From an uncultured virus (IMG/VR IMGVR_UViG_3300033150_001293) (Duplodnaviria > Heunggongvirae > Uroviricota > Caudoviricetes), in the IMG/VR virus record IMGVR_UViG_3300033150_001293: a stretch of DNA of 64,000 nucleotides; one strand, 5' to 3'. The stretch's first letter is position 1; every line of letters starts with the position of its first letter. The position numbers and the translations under genes were made by a program. Below, piece after piece: positions 15,398-40,635 of this stretch. The notes below the pieces were generated by a model, which worked only from the letters and a program-made list of their open reading frames with translations, was not told the origin of the DNA and did not search any database.

Positions 15398-15450
15398 CAT
15401 TGGACCTGAGCAAGTACCGTATAATCCGCTAGGCAACAGGAGCCATCACA

Positions 15451-16560: not shown

Positions 16561-16578
16561 TCAACAGGAGCCATCACA

Positions 16579-17877
16579 ATGTGCGAGTTCTTATCCGGCG
16601 TGGTCACGATGGAGCGGTGCCCGCGAGTGCTCTGCGCTGATTTGCGGCATTGCGAATACACAGTGGCAGCGTTCGGTCTTAAGCCGGAGACGTACCGAGA
16701 ATGGGAATGGCTCGAAGACGACGACGGAGCCAGCCTCACGGTGTATGCCGCGCCCGGCGAAGAAGGCAGCGTGCTGAAGTCGGCCATCCTGGCAAAATAC
16801 CCGACGCGGGAAGACGCGCTGAGGGCTTGCGTCGCTCAGGCGTTGGAGAAACGCGGTTTGCTCGACTTTCGCAGCTGTACGCTACCCGCTGATTTGAAGC
16901 TACCCGAGTCGATGGATGACTCGCTCAATCTTCGCTATTGCACGCTACCCGACGGATTGACGCTACCCAAGTCGATCGGTGGCTGGCTCGACCTTAACAA
17001 CTCCGTGCTACCCGACGGTTTGAAGCTACCCGAATCGGTAGGCGGCTCGCTCGACCTTAGTGGCTGCAAGTTGCCTGTTGGATTGACGCTACCCAAGTCG
17101 ATCGGCGGCTCGCTCGACCTTAGCGATTGTAAGCTGCACGCTGGATTGAAATTACCCAAGTCGGTGGGCAAGTGGCTCTACCTTTGCGGCTGCACGCTAC
17201 CCAACGGGCTGACGTTGCCTAAGTCGATGAACGGTTCGCTTGACCTCAGCTACTGCACGCTACCCGCCGATCTGAAGCTACCCAAGTCGATTGGCGGCTC
17301 GCTTGACCTCTATTACTGCGTGCTACCTGCTGGCCTGACGCTGCCCGAGTCGATCGGCGGCGGGCTCGATCTTCGCGGCTGCGTATTACCCGCTGGGCTG
17401 ACGCTGCCCGAGTCGATCGGCGATGAACTCTGCCTTCGCAACTGCACGCTGCCCGACGATTTGACGCTGCCCGAGACAATAGGCGGTTGGCTTGACCTTC
17501 GCGGCTGCGTATTACCCGCTAGTCTGACACTACCCGAGTCGATCAGCGGCTCGCTCGATCTTCGCGGCTGCAAGCTACCCGCTAGTCTGTCGCTACCCGA
17601 GTCGATCGGCGGTTCGCTCTACCTTCGCGGCTGCACATTGTCTAGCGATTTGACATTACCCAAATCGGTAGGCGGTTCGTTTAACCTTTGCGATTGCGTA
17701 TTACCTGTTGGGCTGACGCTACCCGAGTCGATTGGCGGTGAACTCTACTTTTGGAATTGTAAGCTACCCGCTGGGCTAACGCTACCCAAGTCGATTGGCG
17801 GTTGGCTCGACCTTAGCGGCTGCACGTTGGCTGAAGGCTTAACGTTGGACCTGAGTAAGTACCGCGTGATCCGTTAA
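16579..17877 (+). CDS. LRR-like repeat protein 3
   Basis: paralogue with the longest repeat tract. Confidence 0.9.
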   Translation: MCEFLSGVVTMERCPRVLCADLRHCEYTVAAFGLKPETYREWEWLEDDDGASLTVYAAPGEEGSVLKSAILAKYPTREDALRACVAQALEKRGLLDFRSCTLPADLKLPESMDDSLNLRYCTLPDGLTLPKSIGGWLDLNNSVLPDGLKLPESVGGSLDLSGCKLPVGLTLPKSIGGSLDLSDCKLHAGLKLPKSVGKWLYLCGCTLPNGLTLPKSMNGSLDLSYCTLPADLKLPKSIGGSLDLYYCVLPAGLTLPESIGGGLDLRGCVLPAGLTLPESIGDELCLRNCTLPDDLTLPETIGGWLDLRGCVLPASLTLPESISGSLDLRGCKLPASLSLPESIGGSLYLRGCTLSSDLTLPKSVGGSFNLCDCVLPVGLTLPESIGGELYFWNCKLPAGLTLPKSIGGWLDLSGCTLAEGLTLDLSKYRVIR

Positions 17878-17895
17878 TCAACAGGAGCCAATATA

Positions 17896-18711
17896 ATGTG
17901 CGAATTTCTATCCGGCATAGTTACGATGGAGCGGTACCCTCGTGTGCTCTGCGCCGACCTACGGCATCACGAGCGCACGGTGGAGGCGTTCGATCTCAAG
18001 CCGGAAACGTACCGGGAGTGGGAATGGGTCGAGGACGACGACGGAGCCAGCCTCACGGTGCGTGCCGCGCCCGGCGAGAATCCCAGCGTGCTGAAGTCGG
18101 CCATCCTGGCGAAATACCCGACGCGGGGAGACGCGCTGAGGACTTGCGTTGCTCAGGCGTTGGAAAAAAGCGGTTCGCTCTACCTTCGCGATTGCAAGCT
18201 GCCTGACGGTTTGACGCTGCCCGAGACGATAGATGGTTGGCTCGACCTTCATGGTTGCGTATTGCCTGCTAGTCTAACGCTACCCAAAACAGTTGGTGGC
18301 TGGCTCAACCTCGACGGCTGCATGCTACCCGCCGGAGTGACGTTACCCGAGTCGATCGGCGGCTGGCTTGACCTCAACAACTCCGTGCTACCCGACGGAC
18401 TAACGCTACCCAAGTTGGTAGGCGATTCGCTCGACCTTCGCGGCTGCAATCTACCTGCTAGTCTGACGCTACCCAAGACAGTTGGCAGTTCACTCTACCT
18501 TTGCGATTGCGAGCTACCCAACGGATTGACATTACCCAAGTTGGTAGGCGGTTCGCTCGACCTTCGCGGTTGCAAGCTACCTGCTGGCCTGACGCTACCC
18601 GAGTCGATCGGCGGTTCGCTCGACCTTCGTCGCTGCACGCTAGCTGAGGGTCTGATATTGGACCTGAGCAAATATAGTGCGGTCCGCGCTGCACGTTGGC
18701 GAAGGGTTTAA
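17896..18711 (+). CDS. LRR-like repeat protein 4
   Basis: paralogue with the shortest repeat tract. Confidence 0.9.
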   Translation: MCEFLSGIVTMERYPRVLCADLRHHERTVEAFDLKPETYREWEWVEDDDGASLTVRAAPGENPSVLKSAILAKYPTRGDALRTCVAQALEKSGSLYLRDCKLPDGLTLPETIDGWLDLHGCVLPASLTLPKTVGGWLNLDGCMLPAGVTLPESIGGWLDLNNSVLPDGLTLPKLVGDSLDLRGCNLPASLTLPKTVGSSLYLCDCELPNGLTLPKLVGGSLDLRGCKLPAGLTLPESIGGSLDLRRCTLAEGLILDLSKYSAVRAARWRRV

Positions 18712-23417: not shown

Positions 23418-24291
23418 ATGAGCAGATCGCAATGGGTCCGCGTCAGTCGACGCGAGCCTTGTCCGGTCTGTCATCCACAAGCCGGACTGGTGCCTTGTAA
23501 CTGGTCCTGAAGGATGTCGTACGGCCGTGATATGCGCCCGCGTCGAGAGCCCCAAGCGCTGCGGCGAGGCTGGCTGGCTCCACAAGCTGCGGGATGACTG
23601 GCGGAATTCGCCCCCGCCCAGACTCGATCCGAAGCCGGAGCGGCCAGAGCCGAAGCGGGACTTCGCGGCGTTCGCGGAGCTGTGCACGACACAGTTGCAC
23701 CGAGACGCCCTGGGGGCGTTTGCCGGGAAGATGGGGCTAAGCGTCGGCTCGCTCGTGCGGCTGGGGCTCGGCTGGTCGCTGGAACATAAGGCGTTCACGT
23801 TCCCAATGCGGCGGGGCTCCGACGGCAAGGTGGTGGGCATCCGGCTGCGTCTACGCAGCGGCCGGAAGCTGGCGGTCAAAGGCGGGAGGGAGGGGCTGTT
23901 TGTGCCGTCGGACACGCCGCGGACTGGCGAGCTGTACCTGCCGGAGGGGCCGACGGACACGGCGGCGCTGCTGGACATCGGCTGCGAGGCGGTAGGGCGG
24001 CCGAGTTGCAACGGCGGCATCCAACACATACTGTCGTTCATCGCGCGGTCGAAGTACGCCGGCATCTGCGTTGTGGCGGACGCGGACGCGCCGGGCCAGC
24101 AGTGGGCGAAGGTGTTGGCGGAAAAGCTGCTACCGTACGCCCCCCGGGTGTGGATCGTCACGCCGCCTGACGGACACAAGGACGTGAGAGACTGGGTGCG
24201 GGGGGGAGCGACAAAACGCAACATTGACGGCGCAGCCGTGCCGCAAGAAACTCGCAACACACTTCTTAGCACAAATGCATTGTACCATTAG
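23418..24291 (+). CDS. Zn-finger/TOPRIM primase-like protein with a +1 frameshift near 23475
   Basis: MSRSQWVRVSRREPCPVCH | HKPDWC; EGPTD, DADAPG, KDVRDW. Confidence 0.8.
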
Positions 24292-24307
24292 AGGCAGGAT
24301 GCGGCAA
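24251..24307 (-). ncRNA. promoter plus half-repeat unit antisense to the primase 3' end
   Basis: minus strand TTGCCG-17 bp-TACAAT-GCATTTGTGCTAA-GAAGTGTGTTGCGAG. Confidence 0.75.
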
Positions 24308-24321
24308 TACAGGATAACCGA

Positions 24322-24729
24322 ATGAGCCGGCAGAAACGCATAGCGAAGGCACACCGCGAACTGTACGCCGCAATACCCGAGGTGAAAGGATGCACGCACT
24401 GCGGCGAGTGCTGCGGGCCGGTGGTATGGTCGGCGTGGGAATGGTCGCGGGTGGAGCACCGCAAGCCGACCGAGCAGGACGCCCGGCTGCTGCGGTGCCC
24501 GTACTATCGGGCGAAGATATGCGACTGCTACGAGAATCGGCCGTTTCTGTGCCGGTTGTTCGGTGCCGCGGACAACCTGCGGTGCCCGAACGGAGCGCGG
24601 CCGGATCGGCTGCTTACGGCGGCCGAATCTAATGCCCTGATGGAAAAATACCTGACGCTGTGCAAACAGTCCGACGCAGGGGATCTGGTATTGTGCAAGG
24701 GGGAGGCACAACCAAATGAGACCGCATGA
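24322..24729 (+). CDS. YkgJ-like CxxCxxCC Fe-S/Zn protein
   Basis: CTHCGECC...CPY...YENRPFLCRLFG. Confidence 0.85.
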   Translation: MSRQKRIAKAHRELYAAIPEVKGCTHCGECCGPVVWSAWEWSRVEHRKPTEQDARLLRCPYYRAKICDCYENRPFLCRLFGAADNLRCPNGARPDRLLTAAESNALMEKYLTLCKQSDAGDLVLCKGEAQPNETA

Positions 24730-24919
24730 CATACGTATGGGCGCGACGTATCGCGGTCGCGGCAAACGCAAGACGATTCGGACCGTGCTGTATATCGGCA
24801 GCTCTCCGCCGGAGCCGCCTCGCGTCATATACCGCGACTATCGCGGGCGCAGACGCGACACGTCCCTCACGTCGTTTGCGCGCTGGGCGGACGAGGAAGT
24901 TCTAGTGTACGTTGGATAA
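24716..24919 (+). CDS. small basic hypothetical protein
   Basis: 67-aa ORF with GGAGG RBS. Confidence 0.55.
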   Translation: MRPHDIRMGATYRGRGKRKTIRTVLYIGSSPPEPPRVIYRDYRGRRRDTSLTSFARWADEEVLVYVG

Positions 24920-25462
24920 CCGATTTCAGCGGAGCCGGATTTCTCTGGCGAGTCGAATAGATAGACCGACCCTCCCTGGGCATCCCCGTACATGGTAGCC
25001 GTGATGACGCTCGTTGATTCTAGAAGACGCCCGGCTGTCTGCTTCGATCGGCCGGGACCGGTTCGGGCTTCTGCGACACAGGCTGGCAAGGCCCGTGTAG
25101 ACCTACTGACGGCGTTCTGTTTGCCGGATGCCTTTTGGACCGGGACGCGGTCGGCGCGGTTGGATCGACTACCAGCTCGTTGCCCGGGAGAAGCCGCGAT
25201 GTGCGGCACAGAATACCTTTCGGCTGCATCGGCCCTCGGGCGGAGATATGCGCCCGCCGATTTGTATTCCGGCTCTTTTTGTGGGGTGAAAGTGCCGGCA
25301 CGACGTAACCCCTCTTCGAGAATCGGTCTCCGCCGAACTATTCGGCTGAATGTAGTATAATATGGGCTAGTGAACGTGTCAACCCCGGCAGGCGAGTCGG
25401 TCTCCGCCTTTGAGTCCCCCAATCGGCCGTAACCCCCGTGCGGGGGGCGAGCCGGGTTTTTC

Positions 25463-25498
25463 ATGGCAACGGCTGAAATCCAAGAAGTGTATAGCGAG
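25463..25498 (+). repeat. degenerate full repeat after a terminator
   Basis: ATGGCAACGGCTGAAATCCAAGAAGTGTATAGCGAG. Confidence 0.8.
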
Positions 25499-25519
25499 CA
25501 AAAGCGAAAGGACAATCGA

Positions 25520-25963
25520 ATGGCCGAAAAAGCACCTGAAGAGCGTTTGTGGGGCTGCATAGTACAAATCATGCTGATGGCGTTTTTCATCTATATCATA
25601 GGCGTTCTTCTTGCGGCCCTGTTTAAGTCCGCGTCTATGCCGGACGTTACGCCGTCGTACAGGCCGCCTGCCACGCCGTCTTGGGACGACATGTATTCGT
25701 CGCCGGGGCCGTCGCGCAGCAGCGGTGCGACGACTGTCTCGACGTGTACTCTGGCCCCGTCGGCCTCGGCCTACAGGCAGGCCACCGACGCGGCGGCACA
25801 CGGCAACGGGCTCGGCGTGGCGGCGACCGGCACGGTGATCCTGGAGAGCGGCACGCGGGTCAGGGTGCTCGGCTCGGGCGGGTTCATGCTGAAGCGGGTG
25901 GCCGTGCTGAGCGGACCCTATGCCGGAAAGACGGGCGTGGTTGCGTCGGAAAAAATCCGCTGA
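25520..25963 (+). CDS. membrane-anchored protein with SH3-like C-terminus
   Basis: TM segment; GTRVRVL..RVAVLSGPYAGKTGVV. Confidence 0.6.
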   Translation: MAEKAPEERLWGCIVQIMLMAFFIYIIGVLLAALFKSASMPDVTPSYRPPATPSWDDMYSSPGPSRSSGATTVSTCTLAPSASAYRQATDAAAHGNGLGVAATGTVILESGTRVRVLGSGGFMLKRVAVLSGPYAGKTGVVASEKIR

Positions 25964-25982
25964 GATATGGTATAATAGAAAT

Positions 25983-26208
25983 CAACGGGGTCCTCGCAGC
26001 CCCAATGAGAGGCGAGAAGTACCATGACACCCAAACGGCAATCACGGCGCATCCGTCCCCGATCATGTGCAAGCATGACGGGTGACGGTCGCCGGCTGAG
26101 CGGGTCCGGGCAACTCTCGCTGAAGGCTCCTGAAACAGGCCGGATATGCCGTGAGCCCGGCCGACACACTTCGCCTGGTGCGGTGATTCATCGCCGCACC
26201 AGGTTTTT
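25983..26208 (+). ncRNA. predicted tracrRNA of the Cas12f-like system
   Basis: TGG-TATAAT at 25968-25976; anti-repeat CGACACACTTC at 26162-26172; CTCGCA at 25993-25998; terminator hairpin plus T5. Confidence 0.75.
26174..26208 (+). terminator. intrinsic terminator
   Basis: CCTGGTGCGGTGA-TTCA-TCGCCGCACCAGG-TTTTT. Confidence 0.85.
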
Positions 26209-26213
26209 ATTCT

Positions 26214-26382
26214 GGCTGAAATTCAAGAAGTGTGTTGCGAGGCACGGGGCGACCTGGACACGTCACACCTCGTGACGACGGCTGAAATCTGAGAAGTGTG
26301 TTGCGAGACCGAATCTCACCGTAGAGAAGAGCCTCTTTATAGGGTGGCGACAACGGCTGAAATCTGAGAAGTGTGTTGCGAG
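26214..26382 (+). CRISPR. CRISPR array B: 3 repeats (first 5'-truncated), 2 spacers
   Basis: repeats at 26214, 26272, 26347. Confidence 0.92.
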
Positions 26383-26417
26383 CGAGCAAACAAAAACGAA
26401 AGGGAAAGGAGAACGAC

Positions 26418-26960
26418 ATGGCGACTACAAGACAAGCGTTGTTGGAGCTGAAGAGGCTGGCGGCATCGGCCGCCGACAACCTGTACCGCCGCATCGAGCT
26501 GTCGGCGCAGGTGATGAGCGACCTGGACTGGATTGCCCGCGAGCACGGCGGTTCCGACTTGAAGGCCCAAGACACGTTGCAGGATCAGTTCTTCAGGGAC
26601 CTTGGCGGGTTCATCTCCCTCGGCAAGCTGATTGCGATGTTTCGCAACGTGCCGCAGGAGACGTGGGCCGAGCTGAAGTACGACGTGGCGGCCGTCGAAG
26701 TCGTCTACGACGACCAGGCCATCGAGAAGACGGAGAAGGGGACCAAGACCGCCTGGAAGCCCATTGCGGAGGAGAGGGGCGAAAAGATCGAACGCCTTCA
26801 GCGGCAGATGTCTCAGGTCAACGAGCTGGCCGATAAGCAGCGTTCGGAAATCGACGTGCTGCGGGCGAAGGTTGAAGAGCTGACCCGCGAGAACGAGCGT
26901 CTTCGGGGGCGCGTCGAGGAGCTTCAACGACTGCTCGATAGGCAGGTCGTGCAAGTGTGA
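26418..26960 (+). CDS. coiled-coil protein embedded between arrays B and C
   Basis: AAGGAG RBS; C-terminal heptads (LRAKVEELTRENERLRGRVEELQRLL). Confidence 0.8.
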   Translation: MATTRQALLELKRLAASAADNLYRRIELSAQVMSDLDWIAREHGGSDLKAQDTLQDQFFRDLGGFISLGKLIAMFRNVPQETWAELKYDVAAVEVVYDDQAIEKTEKGTKTAWKPIAEERGEKIERLQRQMSQVNELADKQRSEIDVLRAKVEELTRENERLRGRVEELQRLLDRQVVQV

Positions 26961-27875
26961 CGGGAAGTGTGTTGCGAGGGCGAGAACCGGCTTCAGCACG
27001 TGGTCCCCGCAAGAGGTGACAACGGCTGAAAGCGGAGAAGTGTGTTGTGAGGACGGGGCGATTGCGGGTTGTGACGACGGCTGAAATTGGAGAAGTGTGT
27101 TGCGAGCCGAGTCTGTCCCCGAGGGTGACAACGGCTGAAAATCGAGAAGTGTGTTGCGAGACACGGCGCCCGCGCCCGTCTCGACGCCGCGAGCGACGTG
27201 ACAATGGCTGAAAATCGAGAAGTGTGTTGCGAGCACCCGGCTCACGTCCACGCCGCCCGGGCCGGCCCGGTGACAATGGCTGAAATCCGAGAAGTGTGTT
27301 GTGAGAAGGTCACCCACCCTCCGAGTGGTGACAACGGCTGAAATCGGAGAAGTGTGTTGCGAGACCTCCCAGCGCCGCCCGCCGGGGTCGGACAGCTCGC
27401 CCGTGACAACGGCTGAAAATCGAGAAGTGTGTTGCGAGCCGAATAGGTCGGTAAGCTTGGTTGGGTGGTGCTCTCGTGACGATGGCTGAAATTCGAGAAG
27501 TGTGTTGCGAGCAGACCCCAATCGTGCAAGACCGCGACACTAAGGCACGTGACGACGGCTAAAATCTGAGAAGTGTGTTGCGAGCCGACGAAGAATCCCG
27601 CCGTCGCGAGGGAGATGGCCGTGACAACGGCTGAAATCTGAGAAGTGTGTTGCGAGCTGCCATCGTTACCCTTTCAGTCTGGTTATGTTACCCGTGACGA
27701 CGGCTGAAATCCGAGAAGTGTGTTGCGAGGCTTCGGAGTAGGCCAGCCGCCCGTCCAGGTCCGGGGTGATGACGGCTGAAAGTCGAGAAGTGTGTTGCGA
27801 GTGTCCATGATGCAATCGCAGGGGACGCTGCTGGAGGCGCTGACGACGGCTGAAATCGGAGAAGTGTGTAACGAG
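26957..27875 (+). CRISPR. CRISPR array C: 14 repeats (first internally deleted, last degenerate), 13 spacers of 18-39 bp
   Basis: repeats at 26957, 27016, 27071, 27125, 27198, 27270, 27328, 27403, 27476, 27549, 27621, 27694, 27766, 27840. Confidence 0.97.
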
Positions 27876-27900
27876 CAAACAAGCGAGGGAGCGAGGCAAA

Positions 27901-29184
27901 ATGGCCATCGGAATTCTAGAAGTCAAGCTGGGGCGTCCGATCCAAATGCCAACGAAGCGGTTCCACCAGCTACTCAGGCAGGCCCGCCGCGATTGCTGCA
28001 AAGCACGCAACGCGGCCATGCTCCACTGGTATGTCTGGCGGCGAGAGCACGCGGATTGGGAGCCGGGAAAACCATACGAGGCGCCGAAAGCCAAGATTAT
28101 GCGAACTCGCAAACCGGCAGGCGAAGGGAAGAAGCCACCGAAGGACTCGCCGATTGCCCCTCGCCTATTTCTTAGCCGCGAACTCTACCACGCGGCAACC
28201 GCGGCGGCGCGGAACCTGTCGGCGTCGCTCGCCTCGTCGTGTGTACAGGAGGTGATCGCCCGACTCAAGGCCAACACCCCTTACGACCACGACGGCGAAG
28301 CGAGGTGGGTATGGCAAGCAATCCTTGCGTCCGAAGTCAATCTGCCCACCTGGCGCGGCGGGCGCATCCCGATGCCCAAGCGGTGCTCGTCGCTCGGATA
28401 CGACGGGGCCGTCAGCCAACCGTCGGCTGACGTGGCGAGGGCCTGCAAAAGCGGGTGCGTTTTGAAGTTTCAACTGCTGTCTAGGCTGAGCGGCTATAGG
28501 ACGCTATCGCCCATCGTCCGACTGGACGCCGCCGACCTGACGCGGGGCAACCGGCGATTGCTGAGGCGTCTGGCGTCTGGCGAGGTACGTCTGGCAGACA
28601 GCCAGATCGTCGAGAAAAAGGGCAAGTGGTTCGCCCAATTCTGCTACGAGGTGGCGGCCAACGCGATCGGCCTGCCAACGGATCAGGTGTTGACGCTACT
28701 GCCGGCGGAGCCGGACGACAAGTGGCCGTTCGCGCTCGCATGGACCAAGGAGGATGGGAATGGGCGGGTGTGGAAGATTGGCAACGGGCGGCCGCTCGTG
28801 GCCGAATACCGCCGGGTAGTAGCCCGGCGCCGGGCGATCCGCTACCGCTACCAGGACGGGACGGGCAGCGGGCACGGGCGCCAGCGGTGGTACAAGGCGA
28901 TTCGTCCGATGGCTCACGCCGTGCGGGACATGCAGAACCGCTTTGAGAAGCAGACGATTGCGGACATCATCAAGCTGGCGATTCGTGAGCGGTGCGGCAC
29001 GGTCCTGTACCGCGAGCCGACGATGCCGGTCCGCAACTATTCGTGGTTTGCGGCCAAGGACGTGCCGTTTGACTGGACGAGTTTCGAGGCGAGGCTGCGG
29101 TTCAAGACGGAGACGCGCGGCCTGGCCTACGAGAAGGCGCGTATCGGGATGAAGGAATGGCGTCCAAGAAAAATCGCAAACTGA
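27901..29184 (+). CDS. cas12f: Cas12f-like type V effector, predicted nuclease-dead
   Basis: collinear with AsCas12f1 as recalled: ILASEVNLPTWR/ILRGDMSIPSYK, SQIVEKKGKWF/SQIIHDDRKNKWY, GHGRQR/GHGRDKR, AIRERCGTV/AIKEGCGTI; RuvC-I is VLTLLPA (no D), RuvC-II is VLYREPT, Zn finger and RuvC-III absent; flanked by arrays. Confidence 0.85.
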   Translation: MAIGILEVKLGRPIQMPTKRFHQLLRQARRDCCKARNAAMLHWYVWRREHADWEPGKPYEAPKAKIMRTRKPAGEGKKPPKDSPIAPRLFLSRELYHAATAAARNLSASLASSCVQEVIARLKANTPYDHDGEARWVWQAILASEVNLPTWRGGRIPMPKRCSSLGYDGAVSQPSADVARACKSGCVLKFQLLSRLSGYRTLSPIVRLDAADLTRGNRRLLRRLASGEVRLADSQIVEKKGKWFAQFCYEVAANAIGLPTDQVLTLLPAEPDDKWPFALAWTKEDGNGRVWKIGNGRPLVAEYRRVVARRRAIRYRYQDGTGSGHGRQRWYKAIRPMAHAVRDMQNRFEKQTIADIIKLAIRERCGTVLYREPTMPVRNYSWFAAKDVPFDWTSFEARLRFKTETRGLAYEKARIGMKEWRPRKIAN

Positions 29185-29477
29185 TCCTCGACTGCGAGAT
29201 ATGCGGGGAGCCGGTAGTGCTGTCGCCGTCGCGGTACGTCGCGCTCGTGCGGGCTGGCGAGCGGCCGCGGTGCCGGAAGAACGGGTGCGAGAGGTTGTGC
29301 GGTGCGAAAAGTGCGGGGACCTCTCGCGGCACGCAAGTACTTGCCGGGGCGAGGGTTTCGCCGCTGGTAGTGCAATGGCCCCACACGAAGAGGGGCAACA
29401 AGAATGGAGCCCTCGCAAAGCTGGCCGTAAAGCGAGACGGCGCATGGCGTTACGAGGGGTGCCGTGACGATGGCTGA
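29157..29477 (+). CDS. small Cys-rich Zn-finger protein overlapping the cas12f stop
   Basis: CEICG...CRKNGC. Confidence 0.55.
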   Translation: MASKKNRKLILDCEICGEPVVLSPSRYVALVRAGERPRCRKNGCERLCGAKSAGTSRGTQVLAGARVSPLVVQWPHTKRGNKNGALAKLAVKRDGAWRYEGCRDDG

Positions 29478-31145
29478 AATCGGAGAAGTGTGTTGCGAGA
29501 CACGAGTTCAGGCGATGTATATACTGGTATGAGCAAGTGACGATGGCTGAAATCGGAGAAGTGTGTTGCGAGGGTCCGACGCCTCCGCAATCTGCTTGGC
29601 GTAGCCGAGTGACAACGGCTGAAATCGGAGAAGTGTGTTGCGAGTGCGAGCGTCCTCCACCCCGAGGCTCGGGTACCTCCCGTGACGACGGCTGAAATCG
29701 GAGAAGTGTGTTGCGAGGCACGTCTCTGGCCTCGCCAATCGCCGCGTTCTTGCCGTGACGATGGCTGAAAATCGAGAAGTGTGTTGCGAGAGAACCGTCA
29801 AGTCCGGGTCGCCACCGTGCGACGACGGCTGAAAGCGGAGAAGTGTGTTGCGAGGCGAATACGAGAGACGTGGGCGCCGACCGTTGGCCGCGTGATGACG
29901 GCTGAAAGCGGAGAAGTGTGTTGCGAGCTGGTAGCGGCAGGCGTGTATCGCCCGAAAGACGGGCGTGACGCGGCTGAAATCCAAGAAGTGTGTTGCGAGT
30001 AGAGTCTGCATAGGCTCAGCGTGTGACAACGGCTGAAAGTCAAGAAGTGTGTTGCGAGCCTGCCGATCGCCCATTGCGTCTCACTCCTTTCGGGTCGTGA
30101 CGATGGCTAAAATCCGAGAAGTGTGTTGCGAGAAGGTCGCCCACCCTCCGAGTGGTGACGACGGCTGAAATTCGAGAAGTGTGTTGCGAGAATGAAGAGG
30201 GAAGGCAGGGGTTACGATCCCATCCGGCGTGATGATGGCTGAAATCTGAGAAGTGTGTTGCGAGGGGTGGACGTGCCGGCGGCGACGATCACGGTGGACG
30301 GCGTGACGATGGCTGAAATCGGAGAAGTGTGTTGCGAGTCGAGTAGCTGCCCGGGGGCTTGTAGGCACCGGCCCGCGTGACGATGGCTGAAAATCGAGAA
30401 GTGTGTTGCGAGAACCACGCAATCAGGGAGCTGGCCTGGGAGGGTGTCAAGTGACGACGGCTGAAATCGGAGAAGTGTGTTGCGAGGCCGAAAACCGAAG
30501 ACGATCAGCGTGCGATAGCTGGTCGTGACGATGGCTGAAATCTGAGAAGTGTGTTGCGAGAGCACGTACGGGCTCACACCCGGCGGTTGACTCCAGCGGT
30601 GACGACGGCTGAAATCTGAGAAGTGTGTTGCGAGCCCTCCCGTGTGACGAGCCGGATGACCTATACGCAGGTGACGACGGCTGAAAATCAAGAAGTGTGT
30701 TGCGAGTCGCCAACCCGGGGATACGTTCAACGGACAGCTACGGACGTGACGATGGCTGAAATTCGAGAAGTGTGTTGCGAGTTGATCGAGAAGATGTTGG
30801 TGGCTGGCCAGCCGGCGTGTGACGATGGCTGAAATTCGAGAAGTGTGTTGCGAGTCGCGGGCCTTCAGGAGGGCAGTTAGCCGTGATTGCAGTGATGACG
30901 GCTGAAATCTGAGAAGTGTGTTGCGAGGCGTCGATCAGCGCCAGCGGGGCCGGCCCGTGGAATGCGTGACGATGGCTGAAATCTGAGAAGTGTGTTGCGA
31001 GAAGCCAAGAGGCAATGCGAGCACGGCGAATGGGGGCGTGACAACGGCTGAAAGCGGAGAAGTGTGTTGCGAGGCTGCCCAATGTGCCCTTGTATTTGGC
31101 GAGAGAACGCGTGCCAACGGCTGAATCCAAGAAGTGTGTCGCGAG
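29464..31145 (+). CRISPR. CRISPR array D: 24 repeats, 23 spacers of 22-39 bp
   Basis: 36-bp repeats from 29464 to a degenerate terminal copy at 31111-31145. Confidence 0.98.
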
Positions 31146-31488
31146 CGAAAAGAAGCCGCACAAGTACAGGGCCCGCCCCGTTGTGGTAGACGGCATCCGG
31201 TTCGCAAGCAAGCGGGAAGCCGCCCGCTACGGCGAGCTGCGATTGCTGGAGCGCGGCGGCCGGATCAAGAATCTCCAGGTCCATCCGCCTTTTATATTGC
31301 AAGAAAAGTTCATCCGGCCGGACGGAAGGAAGGTGCCGGCAATCCGATACATAGGGGATTTCTCCTATTGGGAGGCCGGCGTGTTCGTTGTGGAAGATGT
31401 GAAGGGCGTCGAGACCGTAGTGTGGAAGCTGAAGCAGAAAATGTTTTGGAAGCGGTACCCCGAGATCGATCTGAGGATAGTAAAATGA
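31111..31488 (+). CDS. DUF1064-like phage endonuclease
   Basis: KYRARPVVVDGIRFASKREA...YIGDF...VVEDVKG; probable GTG start inside the terminal repeat. Confidence 0.8.
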   Translation: MPTAESKKCVASEKKPHKYRARPVVVDGIRFASKREAARYGELRLLERGGRIKNLQVHPPFILQEKFIRPDGRKVPAIRYIGDFSYWEAGVFVVEDVKGVETVVWKLKQKMFWKRYPEIDLRIVK

Positions 31489-31823
31489 ACACGCTGATCT
31501 TCCTGGCCGCGTGGCTGGCGATGGGCCTGGCTGGCGTCGCCCTTGGGGCGATTGCACGGCGGCGTATCGGCTTGCCGCAGAACGACCGCCTAACGCAGGT
31601 CACAGCTTCGTTTGCTGGGCCGATGGTCCTGATAGGCGGGATCGTGATGCTGATCTACTCTCGCAACATACTTCGCAGCACAACTGCATGGTACCATTCC
31701 TCGGCGGACGCAGGGAGGACGACTCGCAATTTGCCCTGTCGCAAGACGCCCCCCCCGGACAGTAGGGAAGGGTCGGCCGAGCCGACCCTTCCCCCCAAAA
31801 GTACCGTGTCGCCGGAGAAATAG
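31485..31823 (+). CDS. small membrane protein (C-terminus runs through inserted elements)
   Basis: MNTLIFLAAWL.. two TM segments. Confidence 0.5.
   Translation: MNTLIFLAAWLAMGLAGVALGAIARRRIGLPQNDRLTQVTASFAGPMVLIGGIVMLIYSRNILRSTTAWYHSSADAGRTTRNLPCRKTPPPDSREGSAEPTLPPKSTVSPEK
31660..31715 (-). ncRNA. promoter plus half-repeat unit
   Basis: minus strand CGTCCGCCGAGGAATGGTACCATGCAGTTGTGCTGC-GAAGTATGTTGCGAG. Confidence 0.7.
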
Positions 31824-31825
31824 CG

Positions 31826-32512
31826 ATGAAATGTTCGGCCGTAGTCCTATCCTTCAATCGCGTGCCCAACCTGGGCCGTATCGTCGAGAACCTCCGGCGG
31901 CACGACTGGATAGACGACATCGTGATATGGCACCAAGGCGAGCGGCTGCCGCCCGACTTCGAAGTGTGTTGCGAGCCTATCTGGTATGGCGTCCGCGAAA
32001 TCCACGCGCACAACCGCCTGCGCATGGGGCGATTCGACGCGATGGACCATTGCGCCCACGACGCGGTGCTCGTCCAGGACGACGACACGCTGCCCCGCAA
32101 CCTCGACGCGGCGTGGCAAGCCTGGCGCGAGGAGCAGTCCCGGATCGTTGCCCTGCTCGACCGTGGGCACCTGATGACGGACCGCTGGCGGCACTGGGGC
32201 GATTGCCATGAGGTGCTGCTCGGCTGGGGCGCAATCCTCGATCGGCGGTGGCGGAACGTGTTCAGGCTATGGGAGCACAGCTACGGCGTTGACGAGTTGC
32301 TAGAGCGGAAGGCCGACCGTATCTTCTCAATCCTCCAGCGGCGGCACCACACCGTCCTGCTGGCTGACTACGAGAAGCTACCCGGGGCGGACTCGAACGA
32401 CGCGGCGTGGAAGCAGCCGGACCATGACGCGACGACGAGAGAGGCGAGAGAGCGGTGCCTGAACGGCATATGTGGAATGGGATTGCAGCGCCACGAGTAC
32501 CGGATACGATAA
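31826..32512 (+). CDS. GT-A fold glycosyltransferase
   Basis: SFNRVPNL, IVIW, VQDDD; exact half-repeat at 31961-31975 inside the CDS. Confidence 0.75.
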   Translation: MKCSAVVLSFNRVPNLGRIVENLRRHDWIDDIVIWHQGERLPPDFEVCCEPIWYGVREIHAHNRLRMGRFDAMDHCAHDAVLVQDDDTLPRNLDAAWQAWREEQSRIVALLDRGHLMTDRWRHWGDCHEVLLGWGAILDRRWRNVFRLWEHSYGVDELLERKADRIFSILQRRHHTVLLADYEKLPGADSNDAAWKQPDHDATTREARERCLNGICGMGLQRHEYRIR

Positions 32513-33237
32513 TGCATTTGCCCCTGTACCCCGTGCCGAGCGACACTTGGCAGGACGAATACGAGGCGTGTTTGGCGGACCCGTACCTGCAAAAGAAATA
32601 CGACCGGGAGAAGAGCATCCGGGAGCACGTCGACTACTTCGGCCGATACTGCCCGGAACTCGTGCCCGTAACCAAACCGCCCGGGCTGGTCGTCGACATC
32701 GGCCCCGGCTTCGGCGTTGGGCTAGAGGTCGCCCGCCAGCTCGGATACGACACGATCGGCGTCGAGTCCCCGTCCGGCGATGGCGGGATGGGGGACGCCT
32801 ACCACCGGCTGAGTCGCCTACTGCATGCGCGGCAGAAGCTAGCCGTAACCTACGTCGGCTGGCAGGAGTGGGTTGAGGCGGCCGAGATTCCCGAGGACAG
32901 CGTGTTTCTGTTCAACTCGCGCGGATCGTGGGAGCAGTGCTACGCGGAACTTCTGAGCGGCCCGCCTCACGACCGGCACCACGACTGCAAACAGCAGACG
33001 TGGGATCAGATCGTGACGTGCGTTATCCGGTGGCGGCGGGCGTTCGCGTTCATGGCGTCCCGGCTCGTGCCTGGCGGGCTCGTGCTGATCCACGCCAACG
33101 GGACCGGCTCGTCGACCAGCGACCGATGGTACAGCGCGGCGATAGCCGCCGCTGGGGAGTTTGCCGGACTCGAATTGGCGCTGAAGGAGGGCAATAAATT
33201 GCACAAGTGGAAGAAACCACAACTGATGGAGACATAG
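32512..33237 (+). CDS. SAM-dependent methyltransferase
   Basis: VVDIGPGFG, IGVE, LVPGG. Confidence 0.75.
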   Translation: MHLPLYPVPSDTWQDEYEACLADPYLQKKYDREKSIREHVDYFGRYCPELVPVTKPPGLVVDIGPGFGVGLEVARQLGYDTIGVESPSGDGGMGDAYHRLSRLLHARQKLAVTYVGWQEWVEAAEIPEDSVFLFNSRGSWEQCYAELLSGPPHDRHHDCKQQTWDQIVTCVIRWRRAFAFMASRLVPGGLVLIHANGTGSSTSDRWYSAAIAAAGEFAGLELALKEGNKLHKWKKPQLMET

Positions 33238-33240
33238 CCG

Positions 33241-33825
33241 ATGCCAGGCTCGCAACACACTTCAACTTCCCATCATAGCGGAAAGACGGTTGCCGACAAG
33301 TCATCCGAGGGAAACGGCGAAGAAATCGACCGGCTGAAATCGGAAATCGCCGCACACAAGGAAAGCCTGAAAACATGCCGCAAGACGATTGCGTCGCTCG
33401 AACAGTCTCTGGAAACGGCCAACGCTGCGATTTGGCGAATCGTAGATGAGGTCTGGTCGGTGCGAACTTGCAAGGAAAACGTCGAGCTGGGCGAGACAGT
33501 CGAGGCATTGGTTGAAAACCACAAAGCGTATCTCGCGTTGATCAGGTCGAGGAGGCAAGAGGCTGCAAGAATATGCAAGGAAGCACGCGAGATTCAATCC
33601 GCGTTGCGGTTCGTCGGGCGTGCTGCCAGTTCAGGGTCGAGCGGTATGATGTTCGGATCAGCAGAGCACTTGGTACTCAGCATCGACGCAATCATGCGCC
33701 AGGCGTGTCGAGATATTGACGGTTTGATTGCCAGTTCGACTGGCGTCGTAAACGGCAGCCAAGATCGCTTGATGCGGGACGCGGTGGCAGAACTCCCGCA
33801 ACACCACTCGCAACACACTTCATAA
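33241..33825 (+). CDS. coiled-coil hypothetical protein bracketed by half-repeats
   Basis: starts and ends with repeat-encoded SQHTS; true start uncertain. Confidence 0.45.
   Translation: MPGSQHTSTSHHSGKTVADKSSEGNGEEIDRLKSEIAAHKESLKTCRKTIASLEQSLETANAAIWRIVDEVWSVRTCKENVELGETVEALVENHKAYLALIRSRRQEAARICKEAREIQSALRFVGRAASSGSSGMMFGSAEHLVLSIDAIMRQACRDIDGLIASSTGVVNGSQDRLMRDAVAELPQHHSQHTS
33249..33300 (-). ncRNA. promoter plus half-repeat unit
   Basis: TTGTCG...TATGAT-GGGAAGTT-GAAGTGTGTTGCGAG; promoter sequence shared with 36942-37000. Confidence 0.65.
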
Positions 33826-33859
33826 CTGTATTATACCATGTCCTCAGCGGACGCAGCAA
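33807..33859 (-). ncRNA. promoter plus half-repeat unit
   Basis: TTGCTG-18 bp-TATAAT-ACAGTTAT-GAAGTGTGTTGCGAG. Confidence 0.75.
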
Positions 33860-33884
33860 GGAGTCTTGACATGAAGGACGCGGG

Positions 33885-34799
33885 ATGCGGGCAATAATAA
33901 TATACGACGTGGACGGTTTCGCGTACCACCGGCGGGCGGTAGCATTGAAAAAGTACGCGCCGCCCGACGCGGACGTGCGGCTTGTCAGGACGCCCGACTA
34001 CTGCGGCCCCGGCGACGCGGACGTAGTGGTGCTTTTGGACTATATCTGTCTGGGCATGGTTCAGGGCATGACGCCGGCCCGAGTGCCGCTCGTTTGCACA
34101 TTTTCGGCGGACCACCGGCGGCGGGAGAAACAGTGGCGGCACACCTGCGAGCACGCCGACTGGGTGATAGCGTTGAGCCGGGAGCGGTACGAGGCGGAGC
34201 CGCGATTCGGCAACACCTGCTGCATTGCCAACGGCGTGGACCTCGACGATTTTGGTGCAGACGTACCGATCGAGGGCCGGCCAGACAAGGCGCTGTGGAT
34301 CGGCCAGGACGGGCGAGGGGACAACAAGGGGCTGATCTCCGTCCTGTCGCCGCTGCGCAAGCTGGCCGAGCGGAGCGGGTTCGCCTGCGACTTCCGGGCG
34401 GTGGGCCCTCGCGGATTTTCTACGGATCGCCTGCGGAGTTGGTATAATAGCGGGAGTTACATCGTGTGCGCTAGCCGCTCGGAGGCGACGGCAAACACGG
34501 TGATGGAGGCAGCCGCTTGCGGCTGCGTGCCGGTGAGCACGCCGGTTGGTACCCTGACGGATTGGGGCCAGGATGGCGAGAACTGCGTGCTCGTGAAGGA
34601 TCGGTCGCCGGAGGCGTTCCTGAAAGGACTGCAACGGGCGAAGGACGCACGCCTCCGGCTGGCCGCCGGCACGATGGAGGCCGTGGCGAGGTATGACTAC
34701 CGCCGCGTGGCGGAGCTGTACTGGGAGGATGTAATTCGGCCAATCGCCGAAGGGCGCCGGCCGGAACAATTCTGCTACCTCTCGCAACACACTTCCTGA
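33885..34799 (+). CDS. GT-B (GT4-like) glycosyltransferase
   Basis: ANGVD, KG, SRSEATANTVMEAAACG. Confidence 0.85.
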   Translation: MRAIIIYDVDGFAYHRRAVALKKYAPPDADVRLVRTPDYCGPGDADVVVLLDYICLGMVQGMTPARVPLVCTFSADHRRREKQWRHTCEHADWVIALSRERYEAEPRFGNTCCIANGVDLDDFGADVPIEGRPDKALWIGQDGRGDNKGLISVLSPLRKLAERSGFACDFRAVGPRGFSTDRLRSWYNSGSYIVCASRSEATANTVMEAAACGCVPVSTPVGTLTDWGQDGENCVLVKDRSPEAFLKGLQRAKDARLRLAAGTMEAVARYDYRRVAELYWEDVIRPIAEGRRPEQFCYLSQHTS

Positions 34800-34938
34800 C
34801 TATATTATACTATATCCACCGAGGAAATTTTGTAGGAGAAAGAGCCGTGGAGCCAGAATTGAGTTCGGAAGCCTGAAACCACCTTAAGAACTCGGCCGTT
34901 AAGGCTGCTATAATGGGGAGTATGAAGTGTGTTGCGAG
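34781..34938. ncRNA. divergent pair of TATAAT plus half-repeat units
   Basis: 15-mers at 34781-34795 (-) and 34924-34938 (+); the + promoter resembles the array A leader (CGGCCGTYAAGGCTGCTATAATRGGGAGYATGAAG). Confidence 0.7.
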
Positions 34939-35220
34939 AGTAAAGACAAGACCTCGGACGCAACCACAGTGATAAGCGGGTGCGCCTTGTTGGCGTGGCG
35001 AGTGTTCGTAGTGTTGCCTCTGTGGTATGTGTTGCTGGCGTCGCTGCTTTTGGCTACAGATGCCGAAGGGTGGCAATGGGTTCTGTACATCCTGTATGTT
35101 CCCGCGGGGGTATTCGGCTCCATAATGGTGTATGGATTCAATCTCCTACGCAAGGCAAATAGCATAAGCCCTTCCGAGAAGTGTATTGCGAACGAGTGAG
35201 CGGGCGAAAGGAGAAGCGGT

Positions 35221-35637
35221 ATGTGGTCAATCGTGGTATGGTTTGTCGTCCCGGGCATTGTAATGGGGCTTGGCCTGTTCATGGCATGGCGGGCTAACAA
35301 AATGCCTATCAAATGCACAGGTCTTGTAATGCTGGTCCTCATAGGGATGGCTCTGGGGACCTGCTTAGCTATTCTGCCGTTGTTTCGCATTGAAATACAC
35401 GCCCAAATCGCACGATTTCATTCCGTTCGGCAATCCGTGGAAGCTGCGCGTAACGGCAACACCGCCGAAGATATCGAGCGTGCCGCCATGTTGGACAAAA
35501 TCGTCGAGCGGGCCGCCCTGTCGCACAAAACCGTCGAGGCCAACGAATGGCTGGCACGATCTCGCTACTACGCGAGTCGATGGTATCTGGACGTATTCTG
35601 GCCTGACGAGGTGCTGATGTTGGAACCGATACGGTGA
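35221..35637 (+). CDS. membrane protein
   Basis: two TM segments; AAGGAG RBS after a degenerate half-repeat (35178-35192). Confidence 0.6.
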   Translation: MWSIVVWFVVPGIVMGLGLFMAWRANKMPIKCTGLVMLVLIGMALGTCLAILPLFRIEIHAQIARFHSVRQSVEAARNGNTAEDIERAAMLDKIVERAALSHKTVEANEWLARSRYYASRWYLDVFWPDEVLMLEPIR

Positions 35638-36338
35638 CTGCTGCTATCCCCAAGGTAACGGCCGTCCTGCTTAACTGGAGGCGGCCGGACAACATCCCGC
35701 TGATCCTGGAACGGCTGGCCGAGCAGCCGTTTGTCGATGAAATAGTGCTGTGGAACAACGACGACAGCATTTGCGAGCACAAGGACCACTCGGACTGGTT
35801 CTGGGCGACGGGCGACGTAAGGCTGCGTCTTCTGTTTCGGTTCGCCAACCTCGGCACTTGGGCGAGATTCCTCGCGTGCCGAGAGGCGTCTTGCGACTGG
35901 ATTATCACGCAGGACGACGACTGCCTCTGCGACAACTGGCCCGAACTCTACCGCGAGGCTCTGGCCCATCCCGACGCGATTACGGCCAACATGCACCGCA
36001 ACGAGGACGACACCCACGACGGGCTGATCTACGTCGACGGCAAGTGCTGGGATGTATGGCTTGGCTGGGGCTCGATGTTCCGACGGGAGCTGATAGGAGA
36101 CATATTCGAGCGGTACGTGGCCAAGTGGGGCGAGGACGAGTGCCTGCTACGGGACGCGGACCGAGTGTTTGCGGTGGCACTGGGGCGTAGGCACCACGCG
36201 ATCCAAGCCAGAACCGAAAACTTGCCGGGGATCGACGGGCCGATGGCGATCCACAAGGATGGGAGGAAACACCTCACATGGCTTGCGCGGCGGCGAGGAG
36301 TCCAGTTGGCGGAGAAATGCGAAAGGGAGGGACGATGA
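35634..36338 (+). CDS. GT-A fold glycosyltransferase (paralogue of 31826)
   Basis: LNWRRPDNI, IVLWNN, TQDDD, LGWG, RDADR. Confidence 0.8.
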   Translation: MTAAIPKVTAVLLNWRRPDNIPLILERLAEQPFVDEIVLWNNDDSICEHKDHSDWFWATGDVRLRLLFRFANLGTWARFLACREASCDWIITQDDDCLCDNWPELYREALAHPDAITANMHRNEDDTHDGLIYVDGKCWDVWLGWGSMFRRELIGDIFERYVAKWGEDECLLRDADRVFAVALGRRHHAIQARTENLPGIDGPMAIHKDGRKHLTWLARRRGVQLAEKCEREGR

Positions 36339-36532
36339 GCAGATCTGATTTGCGGTACGCCGTGATTGTTGCGGTGACTCATGCGCTCTACAGCGGAGAT
36401 ACATGGAGAGCGTCAGCAGTAGAGTCAGGACCGGTATATCGTCGTGCTGCCGAAATCGCGGTAAAGCAGGCTGACGCAATCCTGGCATGTCTTGAGTCAG
36501 AAGACCAAGAAACCGCTGAATAGGATGAAAAA

Positions 36533-36736
36533 ATGAGTGAGTGGAAAAGGTATCGGAAACGAGGCACAACCGAGATGCGCCCATACGTGCCGGGCGAAGA
36601 TCTGTCGGACATATCCGTCAACAAGGAAGACACGCCAGAGGAGGGCGGCATGATTGCCCGCAACTCGGACAACCACGAGGACCAATGGTACGTCGCCAAG
36701 GCGTATTTTGCAGCCCATTACGAGGCGGCGCAATGA
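36533..36736 (+). CDS. small hypothetical protein
   Basis: MSEWKRYRKRGTTEMRPYVPGE..DQWYVAKAYF. Confidence 0.6.
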   Translation: MSEWKRYRKRGTTEMRPYVPGEDLSDISVNKEDTPEEGGMIARNSDNHEDQWYVAKAYFAAHYEAAQ

Positions 36737-36941
36737 GCCGCACCATCATCGCCGGCAACGGCCACAAGATCGGCTACGTCCATATTCCTTGCACCGGCGG
36801 GCGGAGCGTAATGCACGCACTGGGGCTTTTGCCGAGCCACGCAACCGCGGCGGAATTGAGGCGTCGGCACCCGGACCTGACGCATGTCGTTGCCATAGTC
36901 CGCTCCCCGTTTACGCTGCTCGTCTCGTGGTACAATCGGAT
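36733..36941 (+). pseudogene. truncated sulfotransferase-family gene
   Basis: YVHIPCTGGRS and VRSPFTLLVSWY motifs; similarity stops at the half-repeat at 36942. Confidence 0.6.
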
Positions 36942-37081
36942 CTCGCAACACACTTCAGCATCTTATCATAGCGAAAAAGACGGTCGAGGACAAGTCATCC
37001 GAGAAGTGTGTTGCGAGCGGGCGAGCTCGTCGAAGGTCACGCGGCGTGGCAACGGCTAAAATTCGAGAAATGTGTTGCGAG
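36942..37081. CRISPR. minus-strand promoter/half-repeat unit back-to-back with a plus-strand mini-array (half-repeat, 28-bp spacer, degenerate repeat)
   Basis: 36942-36956 (-), 37003-37017 (+), 37046-37081 (+). Confidence 0.8.
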
Positions 37082-37096
37082 CGAGTGAGCGAGCGA

Positions 37097-37717
37097 ATGA
37101 GGGCGTGGGGCCAACTACAAGGACGTTATCCGTGGCCGGATCGGCAGCCAAGCGACCAAGGGGTCAAGCGGCCGTTTGGCTGGCTGCACAACAAGACGCA
37201 AGCGGCCCTGCGCCAGCATCTTGGCGAACACACGCGATACGTCGTGGAGTTGGGGACGTGGCTTGGCAGGTCGGCCCGGTTCATTTTGTCGTGCGCGCCG
37301 AACGCGAAAATAGTCTGCGTCGATCACTGGCAGGGCTCGCCGGAGTTGGGCGAGGACCACGGGCACCTGTTTGGCGAACCGGTGTATCAGGCGTTTCTAC
37401 ACCACAACTGGGACCTGAGAGAGCGGATCGTGGCCGTACAGGACCGAACCGAGGCCGGCATAACCGAGGTCGTGATGGCCGGCCTGACGCCTGACCTGGT
37501 GTACATCGACGCCGCGCACGACGCGGAGAGCGTGCGGCTAGACGTATACGCATCAGCGATGGCGTTTCCCGACGCGATATTGGTCGGGGACGACTGGGAT
37601 GTGGACGCCGATCACTACGGCGTGGCGTCCGGCGTAGCGGATGGGTTGAGCCAGGCGTTCGCCAGCTACGACCTACGCAACAACGGCAAAGCGTGGTGGG
37701 CGAAAAGAGTGCCATGA
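37097..37717 (+). CDS. class I methyltransferase (Methyltransf_24-like)
   Basis: VELGTWLGRS, VDHW, YIDAAHD, GDDW. Confidence 0.85.
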   Translation: MRAWGQLQGRYPWPDRQPSDQGVKRPFGWLHNKTQAALRQHLGEHTRYVVELGTWLGRSARFILSCAPNAKIVCVDHWQGSPELGEDHGHLFGEPVYQAFLHHNWDLRERIVAVQDRTEAGITEVVMAGLTPDLVYIDAAHDAESVRLDVYASAMAFPDAILVGDDWDVDADHYGVASGVADGLSQAFASYDLRNNGKAWWAKRVP

Positions 37718-38487: not shown

Positions 38488-38500
38488 AGAGGCGTATCCT

Positions 38501-39166: not shown

Positions 39167-39348
39167 CATGGCTAAAATTACGATTACACTTACAGATACG
39201 CGAGAAGGTGAAATTTGCATTCAAGTGGTCACCACTCCGCCGGTGAAACCAGGCGACAAAAGTACGCCTGCCCAAAAAATAGCGGCAGCATGCCTGGCAG
39301 CAATCGCAGTGCGACACGATAGCGGGAGCCCAAACTAGGGGAAGTCGG

Positions 39349-40566: not shown

Positions 40567-40635
40567 GTAAACAATATGCCAACATGAGGCACACCAACCT
40601 CGGACAGAAACAAGATCAGGGAGGTGATGCCTCGC

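Follow-up and report, generated by a model that had tools for sequence, protein, structure and literature searches.

A phage-borne type V array spacer with an imperfect match in its own genome and a probable source in a sister allele of a small head-module gene

We describe a guide carried by a tailed phage in a CRISPR array. The phage is the uncultured virus of IMG/VR record IMGVR_UViG_3300033150_001293, and the 64,000-nucleotide (nt) stretch of it that was analysed is called the window throughout. The window carries four type V arrays, A1 to A4. The fifth spacer of array A2, CACCCGGCTCACGTCCACGCCGCCCGGGCCGGCCCG, exactly fills the 36 nt at 27234-27269 on the + strand between two 36-nt repeats of the same strand, one at 27198-27233, which ends in the handle GAAGTGTGTTGCGAG, and one at 27270-27305. 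This spacer resembles a site in the phage's own head module (61728-61755, + strand), and the resemblance is more than chance. The comparison of translated sequences gives good support to an origin in a sister allele of the gene at that site, a form of 74 residues with four repeat units, whereas the phage itself carries a form of 65 residues with three. The protein encoded next to the array is a truncated Cas12f-like effector that probably binds without cutting. Our tentative explanation is that the guide silences co-infecting relatives that carry the four-repeat allele.

The spacer, its match and its source

Aligned with the + strand at 61728-61763, the spacer is identical at 19 of its first 20 positions, at 25 of its first 28 and at 28 of 36 overall, with an exact run of 18 nt. 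The mismatches within the first 28 positions are at spacer positions 2, 21 and 25. A first-pass annotation of this DNA had placed the spacer at 27234-27269, counted 19 of 20 and 25 of 28 identities to 61728-61755 and read the 5′ flank of this imperfect, protospacer-like site as GGCCC, and all of these points were reproduced. The + strand of the site is identical to the CRISPR RNA (crRNA) that the array would encode. Base pairing of this crRNA would be to the minus strand, the coding strand of the target gene, which has the sense of its mRNA.

The match stands out among the 39 spacers of the four arrays. It is the sole outlier, with the next best full-length matches at 25 of 38-39 positions. 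Among 300 shuffled spacer sets, one contained an exact run of at least 18 nt; among 300 pseudo-spacer sets drawn from the reversed window, five did. We also used a local ungapped score (+1 for a match, -1.5 for a mismatch), under which the spacer reaches 21. No dinucleotide-shuffled set of 39 spacers reached this value (0 of 400, maximum 20), nor did any single-spacer shuffle (0 of 3000). The spacer has a G+C content of 83% (30 of 36 nt).

The target gene (61659-61856, - strand) has a positive coding score and encodes a 65-residue protein of the head module. It is packed tightly between the open reading frames (ORFs) 61862-62740 and 61259-61657. The spacer match covers codons 34-43 of its 65 codons, with the crRNA antisense to the mRNA, and thus lies inside a coding region within an operon and not at a promoter. 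Three 10-residue units, (F)PG-SVDVSRA, GPG-DTTVARA and GPG-DTTWTRK, make up the C-terminal half of the protein. A 30-nt tandem duplication in the gene (61681-61740, - strand) encodes the GPGDTT units, in a copy number unlike that of the 74-residue alleles. This half is variable among relatives, as judged from a related locus (L021) whose first 127 nt are 95% identical to the target gene and whose remainder is unrelated to it.

A search with the 65-residue protein found five homologues of 74 residues (P0051-P0055), on JGI and NCBI contigs of 2-12 kb, each with one repeat unit more than the window's protein. The peptides that the first-pass annotation had compared, GPGGVDVSRV from the reverse-complemented spacer and FPGSVDVSRA from the minus-strand ORF 61659-61856, are both correct. 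When the reverse complement is read over its whole length in the frame of the target family it encodes RAGPGGVDVSRV, which is identical to residues 52-63 of P0054 at 12 of 12 positions. The agreement falls to 10 of 12 for P0052, 9 for P0055, 8 for P0053 and 7 for P0051, and the phage's own protein also scores 7 of 12 in that register. The DNA match in the phage's own genome sits on the first unit (PG-SVDVSRA), paralogous to the one encoded by the spacer. In addition, the last 18 nt of the spacer agree with the adjacent GPG-coding unit of the phage's own gene at 15 positions, as expected of a permuted repeat allele.

The full agreement with P0054 makes derivation of the spacer from a four-repeat, 74-residue sister allele well supported, an origin that is visible at the protein level only. 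The first-pass annotation had suggested a homologous gene in a related phage as the source. This part of its proposal holds for the protein, but neither the perfect DNA protospacer nor its protospacer adjacent motif (PAM), which were expected to accompany it, was found in the IMG/VR and JGI contigs scanned. Four repeats occur in five of the six known alleles, so the 65-residue form in the window looks derived.

The effector, the arrays and the handles

The array that hosts the spacer is followed by the effector gene (27901-29184, + strand), which encodes 427 residues without a single Pfam or PHROG match. By sequence, the protein is similar to AsCas12f chains (phmmer, E 1.8e-9 to 8j3r_A). Its structural model has a predicted local distance difference test (pLDDT) score of 84, and the top PDB matches of this model in Foldseek are all Cas12f (8j12_A, E 9.4e-19; chain B, TM-score 0.51-0.56). 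The natural nuclease-dead Cas12f (dCas12f) 9n9c_A is matched well by fold (Foldseek E 1.2e-13) and weakly by sequence (E 0.17), while Cas12m2 is a far weaker Foldseek match (8hio_A, E 3.3e-6). The effector has a Cas12f/TnpB-like fold, with WED, REC and RuvC core.

We identified 49 relatives of the effector, with lengths of 255-479 residues, none of them in the species-genome collection; a single-protein scan of IMG/VR found nothing. The family alignment comprises 23 of the 49. At the two aspartate columns opposite the GIDLG of RuvC-I, the residue is D in 14 and 12 of the 23 members, and no acidic residue is invariant. The RuvC-II glutamate (YREPT) is present in 20 of 23. All 23 members stop about 55 residues before the end of AsCas12f, and none has the C-terminal zinc finger. 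The window's own effector stops 19 residues beyond the position aligned to AsCas12f residue 368 and so lacks RuvC-III. The catalytic triad (D, E, D) is not intact. With a RuvC-I aspartate that is not conserved and both the zinc finger and RuvC-III missing, the effector is predicted to be nuclease-dead and probably binds its target without cutting it.

Directly downstream of the effector is an ORF (29157-29477, + strand) for a zinc-ribbon protein of 106 residues with the pattern CxxCGEP...PRCRxNGC. This ORF is kept downstream of the effector in locus L009 (62% identity) and in three further loci, L010-12 (36%), and the protein has 32 representatives in the 50% library. No fusion of the effector and the zinc-ribbon protein (which would be of about 530 residues) was seen among the 49 relatives or among longer proteins. 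One possible role of the zinc-ribbon protein is that of a partner taking the place of the zinc finger that the effector lacks. The effector, the zinc-ribbon gene and the array are kept together across 40-77% identity.

A further record of this phage in IMG/VR, G001, agrees with the window at 100% identity and extends it by 12.8 kb upstream, including a portal-MuF fusion. A Pfam scan of the 90 proteins of the window and this extension found no adaptation gene (Cas1, Cas2 or Cas4) and no sigma factor near the effector. The only trace of a sigma factor is a match to Sigma70_r4_2 below the cut-off (23.1 against 25.7 bits) in a helix-turn-helix protein of the packaging module.

The four arrays share a single repeat family. 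Array A1 (26206-26382, + strand) has 3 repeats and 2 spacers, and its last repeat is directly upstream of a coiled-coil ORF (26418-26960). Array A2 (27016-27875, + strand) has 13 repeats and 12 spacers, with a handle-only copy nearby at 26964-26978, and the start codon of the effector follows 25 nt past its last repeat. Array A3 (29464-31073, + strand) has 23 repeats and 22 spacers. Array A4 (12877-13126, - strand) has 4 repeats and 3 spacers; it is preceded by a promoter and a handle-only unit (13157-13171) and followed by a gene for a Dam-type methyltransferase. Past its last repeat, each array in the window and in L009 leads into the ribosome-binding site of a gene. The spacers are 18 to 39 nt long.

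Three further observations concern the arrays. Two 22-nt spacers, 27306-27327 in A2 and 30133-30154 in A3, agree at 21 of 22 positions, and this likeness suggests that the arrays have been duplicated or have recombined. A promoter-like sequence, GAGACA-17-TATACT, lies inside the first 'spacer' of A3 (29497-29525, + strand). A strong terminator-like hairpin (26173-26204, + strand; 14 pairs and a T run) ends exactly at the start of A1.

The 36-nt repeat is almost invariant over its last 15 nt, the handle GAAGTGTGTTGCGAG, and variable at positions 17-19. This invariant 3′ part abuts the spacer. The repeat folds on itself, with the 5′ arm paired to the 3′ arm, and 8 pairs persist in 43-45 of 45 copies by way of A-U/G-U and C-G/U-G exchanges. 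A scan of the whole window for duplexes with a trans-activating CRISPR RNA (tracrRNA) anti-repeat returned only complements of the repeats themselves. The repeat is present in 0 of 185,579 species genomes scanned and was not found in IMG/VR. The handle itself occurs 70 times in the 64-kb window with at most one mismatch, against an expectation of 0.01.

Outside the arrays there are 28 solitary copies of the handle in the window, for example at 4212-4226(+), 24251-24265(-), 33249-33263(-), 34781-34795(-), 34924-34938(+), 40341-40355(-), 40552-40566(+), 43804-43818(-) and 57559-57573(+). A sigma-70-like -35/-10 pair is located 5-13 nt upstream of 13 of the 28, compared with 77 of 5000 random positions. 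In a stricter promoter scan of 24000-41000, three of eight promoter-like sites were directly upstream of solitary handles, and some of the promoter-plus-handle modules are near-identical copies of each other. Promoters just upstream of the handles imply RNAs that read handle, then guide, on the + strand in the case of A2. Type V crRNAs have this same order, and the orientation bears out the first-pass assumption that the 5′ end of the spacer is the PAM-proximal one.

By our own gene calls, 10 of the 28 solitary handles run antisense into a convergent gene and end within -45 to +29 nt of its stop codon, and about 10 others are directly upstream of gene starts. The guides that follow the solitary handles have only two prefix matches of at least 12 nt elsewhere (76.8 kb, 73 handles), a count for which the random control is inflated by the arrays and unusable, and they are without a clear second target within the 76.8 kb.

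What the guide may do

We lean, with a little less than even confidence, towards the explanation that the guide silences co-infecting relatives carrying the four-repeat allele, without cleavage, while the phage's own allele is spared or weakly bound. In the first-pass annotation this was called inter-phage competition. On this view the spacer is a true guide of a type V array that the phage carries, and the array works with a Cas12f-like protein, truncated at its C-terminus, that would bind and not cut. It would have been copied from the repeat region of a four-repeat, 74-residue sister allele of the kind typified by P0054. The carrier has the three-repeat, 65-residue form and hence would lack the orthologous site, which leaves only the paralogous look-alike at 61728-61755, mismatched at guide position 2 and at 8 of 36 positions in all. 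In the mature crRNA, a 5′ handle from the repeat would precede the spacer; this RNA would be antisense to the gene's mRNA and would pair with the coding DNA strand. The effector would then bind and silence the head operon of the co-infecting relatives, and the missing unit together with the mismatch at position 2 would protect the phage's own allele or weaken binding to it. The array, the match, the fold, the loss of catalytic residues and the 12-of-12 identity to P0054 are observed; that the effector binds and silences, which phage it is aimed at and that the carrier is spared are inferred.

A number of results weigh against this explanation. Only one of the three mismatches within the first 28 positions falls at a third codon position. 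The first-pass annotation had proposed a search of IMG/VR or the source metagenome for a perfect protospacer with its PAM; our scans, run with an 18-mer in the former and a 22-mer in JGI metagenome contigs, returned partial matches only, and neither a perfect protospacer nor a PAM was found in either collection. The 18-mer core hit 8 IMG/VR loci, of which L008 is the target in this same phage and the other seven are unrelated (longest run 20 nt, in L007), and none matches the spacer more fully. The 22-mer hit 5 loci in the JGI contigs, all in unrelated contexts. P0054 comes from JGI data and still its contig was not matched by the 22-mer scan, which means that its DNA departs from the spacer inside those 22 nt or that the collection does not include the contig. 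Likewise, the other 38 spacers have no match in loci L001-L024 or in the genome records G003 and G004, a blastn search of the 4.9-kb array region against GenBank phages returned nothing for the other spacers, and two A3 spacers scanned in IMG/VR gave nothing. When the spacers were compared in six frames with the window at the protein level, the 33 long ones did no better than 60 shuffled ones. Finally, a related phage carries a perfect match to its own genome, as described below.

Other searches had similar outcomes. Runs of 18-22 nt are uninformative in such huge public collections, where almost all matches are in unrelated contexts. A case in point is L013, an unrelated, bacterial-looking contig that agrees with the spacer at 25 of 28 positions with a run of 22 nt; from their translations, its ORFs appear to be glutathione S-transferase-like and CsbD-like. 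A tblastn search with P0054 against GenBank phages returned nothing, and a scan of IMG/VR by small-protein alignment returned only the same phage and the record of L021. Comparing all 39 spacers with the fetched loci, G003, G004 and the extra 12.8 kb of G001 gave only runs of 14-18 nt, and 34 spacers of relatives had no match in the window.

Could the guide be aimed at the phage itself? The spacer may be, or may have been, a guide against the phage's own head-module gene, with which the non-cutting effector tunes late-gene expression. We consider this somewhat less probable than the silencing of relatives, though still a serious contender. Evidence for it comes from the related phage just mentioned (G002, the record of L010; 37.7 kb, CheckV 95% complete), which has a 40%-identical effector, the zinc-ribbon gene and an array of 15 repeats. 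The last spacer of this array (16221-16258, L034) matches its own genome at 32950-32987 (L035:13950-13987) at 38 of 38 positions, where the maximum of a shuffled set was at most 18 in 300 shuffles. The pair of spacer and self-target is present in all three independent records of that phage, G002, G006 and G007, each CheckV 95% complete. The targeted ORF, of 193 residues, comes immediately after the portal gene; the guide is antisense to this ORF, and its site lies 21-33 codons ahead of the stop. The geometry is the same as in the window, with the array on the strand opposite to the target gene and an antisense guide in the 3′ part of the gene. Such an exact self-match in a genome that is nearly complete agrees with an effector that does not cut.

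The family thus tolerates guides against its own genome, and possibly uses them. The derived look of the 65-residue form suggests a variant of this explanation, in which a four-repeat ancestor may have had a perfect site and contraction of the repeats left the present 25-of-28 site, either weakly bound or a relic. The 10 solitary handle units that run antisense into the 3′ end of a convergent gene also fit regulation of the phage's own genes. On the other hand, the phage's own site is mismatched at guide position 2 and at 8 of 36 positions overall, and only one of the 39 spacers matches the phage's own genome (the window and the 12.8 kb of G001), and that one imperfectly. The 5′ flanks of the self-sites also differ, GGCCC in the window against GTGGAG in G002, and two genomes are too few for a rule.

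Given the perfect self-target in G002, the silencing of competitors and self-regulation are both plausible. The first-pass annotation had offered self-targeting tolerated by a dead effector as its second option, which is now supported by the Cas12f-like fold, the RuvC losses and the G002 match, but is not told apart from origin in a homologous gene; both of its options gained positive evidence.

A broader idea, which we regard as unlikely but worth stating, is that the Cas12f-like protein, which would not cut, serves the phage as machinery for the expression of its own genes and not as a weapon. Phage transcription units, sense and antisense, would start with a crRNA handle, and the protein would load on these handle-led 5′ ends to set gene boundaries or timing by RNA guidance. 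Both near-complete genomes have a guide to a head-module gene of their own, perfect in G002 and decayed in the window, which speaks for this idea. The 28 solitary handles of the window speak for it too, with 13 right behind sigma-70-like promoters, 10 aimed antisense at the stop codon of a convergent gene and about 10 right before gene starts; G002 has no solitary handles.

Alternatively, the dead effector and the many repeat and handle copies could act as a decoy or anti-CRISPR that soaks up a host type V effector or its crRNAs, with the spacers as historical baggage. Earlier reports describe solitary repeat units of phages that act as RNA anti-CRISPRs, crRNA-like RNAs that hijack host Cas proteins (PMC10651486, 10.1101/2024.10.29.618823), and a RuvC-dead phage Cas9 proposed to sequester crRNAs (PMC11656645). 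The abundance of handles in the window and the lack of adaptation genes are in keeping with such a role. We find it improbable, because the repeat and the effector relatives are absent from the species genomes scanned, so no host system to mimic is known, because effector, zinc-ribbon partner and array have stayed together, and because the spacers are diverse and one has been traced to a phage gene family. That a GC-rich spacer merely resembles a GC-rich, repeat-containing coding region by chance, as its composition, the 18-nt runs in a few control sets and the unrelated L013 might suggest, is very improbable and close to refuted by a score that no shuffle reached and a whole spacer that reads in frame as 12 residues of an allele of the matched gene.

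Relation to known systems and other features of the phage

The nearest described system is the cluster of array-associated, nuclease-dead Cas12f proteins, which is bacterial and for whose guides repression by binding has been proposed (Hoffmann et al., Nature 2026, PMC13472631). An example from that study is a Chitinophagaceae metagenome-assembled genome in which an efflux promoter is targeted. The two systems share a Cas12f-like fold, adjoining arrays and a truncated C-terminus in which part of the RuvC site is lost. That study found no tracrRNA, and the duplex scan of the window found no separate anti-repeat. They differ in that the window's system is phage-borne and has four arrays with 39 spacers, a conserved zinc-ribbon gene and a guide to a head gene. 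The dCas12f-sigmaE systems of the same study differ further, as no rpoE/sigma-E gene is found beside the window's effector.

Binding-only CRISPR systems (Cas12m of type V-M, and type IV-A) are known from plasmids and prophages, where they are used in conflicts between mobile elements (PMC11656645). Carriage on a mobile element, the lack of an adaptation module, an inactivated nuclease and a presumed role in silencing the genes of rivals are common to these systems and the one described here. Here the effector is of another lineage, and the sole traced target is an allele of a gene that the carrier also has. Mini-arrays of viruses aimed at related viruses are also established (PMC11656645). As in those, the spacer probably has its source in a close relative's homologous gene, and the copy in the carrier is different at the protospacer; unlike the mini-arrays, which need host Cas proteins, this phage brings a non-cutting effector and large arrays of its own.

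The crRNA-like RNAs termed crlRNAs are partially complementary to promoters of their own genomes (10.1101/2023.03.03.530964). An imperfect match of a repeat-flanked guide to its own DNA and the presence of solitary repeat units are points of resemblance. The match in the window is internal to a coding sequence and not at a promoter, and the spacer is part of a regular array. In the available sections of this literature we found no description of a phage-borne dCas12f with arrays, or of handle-led transcripts.

Natural nuclease-dead Cas12f proteins were shown to be RNA-guided transcription factors in bacteria only recently, and here such a protein is found on a phage with large arrays. The guide is the first of this effector family that can be traced, and it tells two alleles of a small head gene apart by a 10-residue repeat unit. 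If the proposals above are true, they amount either to competition between phages by silencing or to RNA-guided control of a virus's own late genes. The system is compact, with an effector of 427 residues, a partner of 106 and a repeat of 36 nt, and either outcome can be tested directly. The handle-led transcripts could moreover lead to the discovery of a novel means by which a virus marks or controls its RNAs.

The remaining gene content of the window includes a tape measure protein, a head-tail adaptor, a head closure protein, RecT, an exonuclease VIII-like nuclease, a helicase, a primase, DNA methyltransferases and numerous glycosyltransferases. No tRNAs were found and there were no Rfam matches. 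A CsrA-family RNA-binding regulator is encoded at 1671-1955 on the - strand (Pfam E 1.3e-24). Four tandem paralogous leucine-rich-repeat genes (14330-18711, + strand) share a near-identical N-terminus, MC(E/K)FLSG(V/I)VT(I/M)ER(C/Y)PRVLCADL.

The head region has some peculiarities of its own. Across the head and tail region, record G004 is the same phage as the window, and it lacks 117 nt within the gene for a 292-residue head-module protein (61862-62740; window 61977/62095 against L038 9206/9207) in an otherwise identical record. Mosaic forms of this protein occur in L019 and L020. Upstream of the window, G001 encodes a 1048-residue protein (L032:3045-6191, - strand) in which a portal domain is combined with a Mu F-like domain and there is a weak match to intein splicing. 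A protein of the head/tail module (62697-63950, - strand) contains numerous tandem units of the form G-C-x-Y-G-I-x-Y-G-S-G-C/H-T-A/V-T-T-I and has a weak match to a carbohydrate-binding module.

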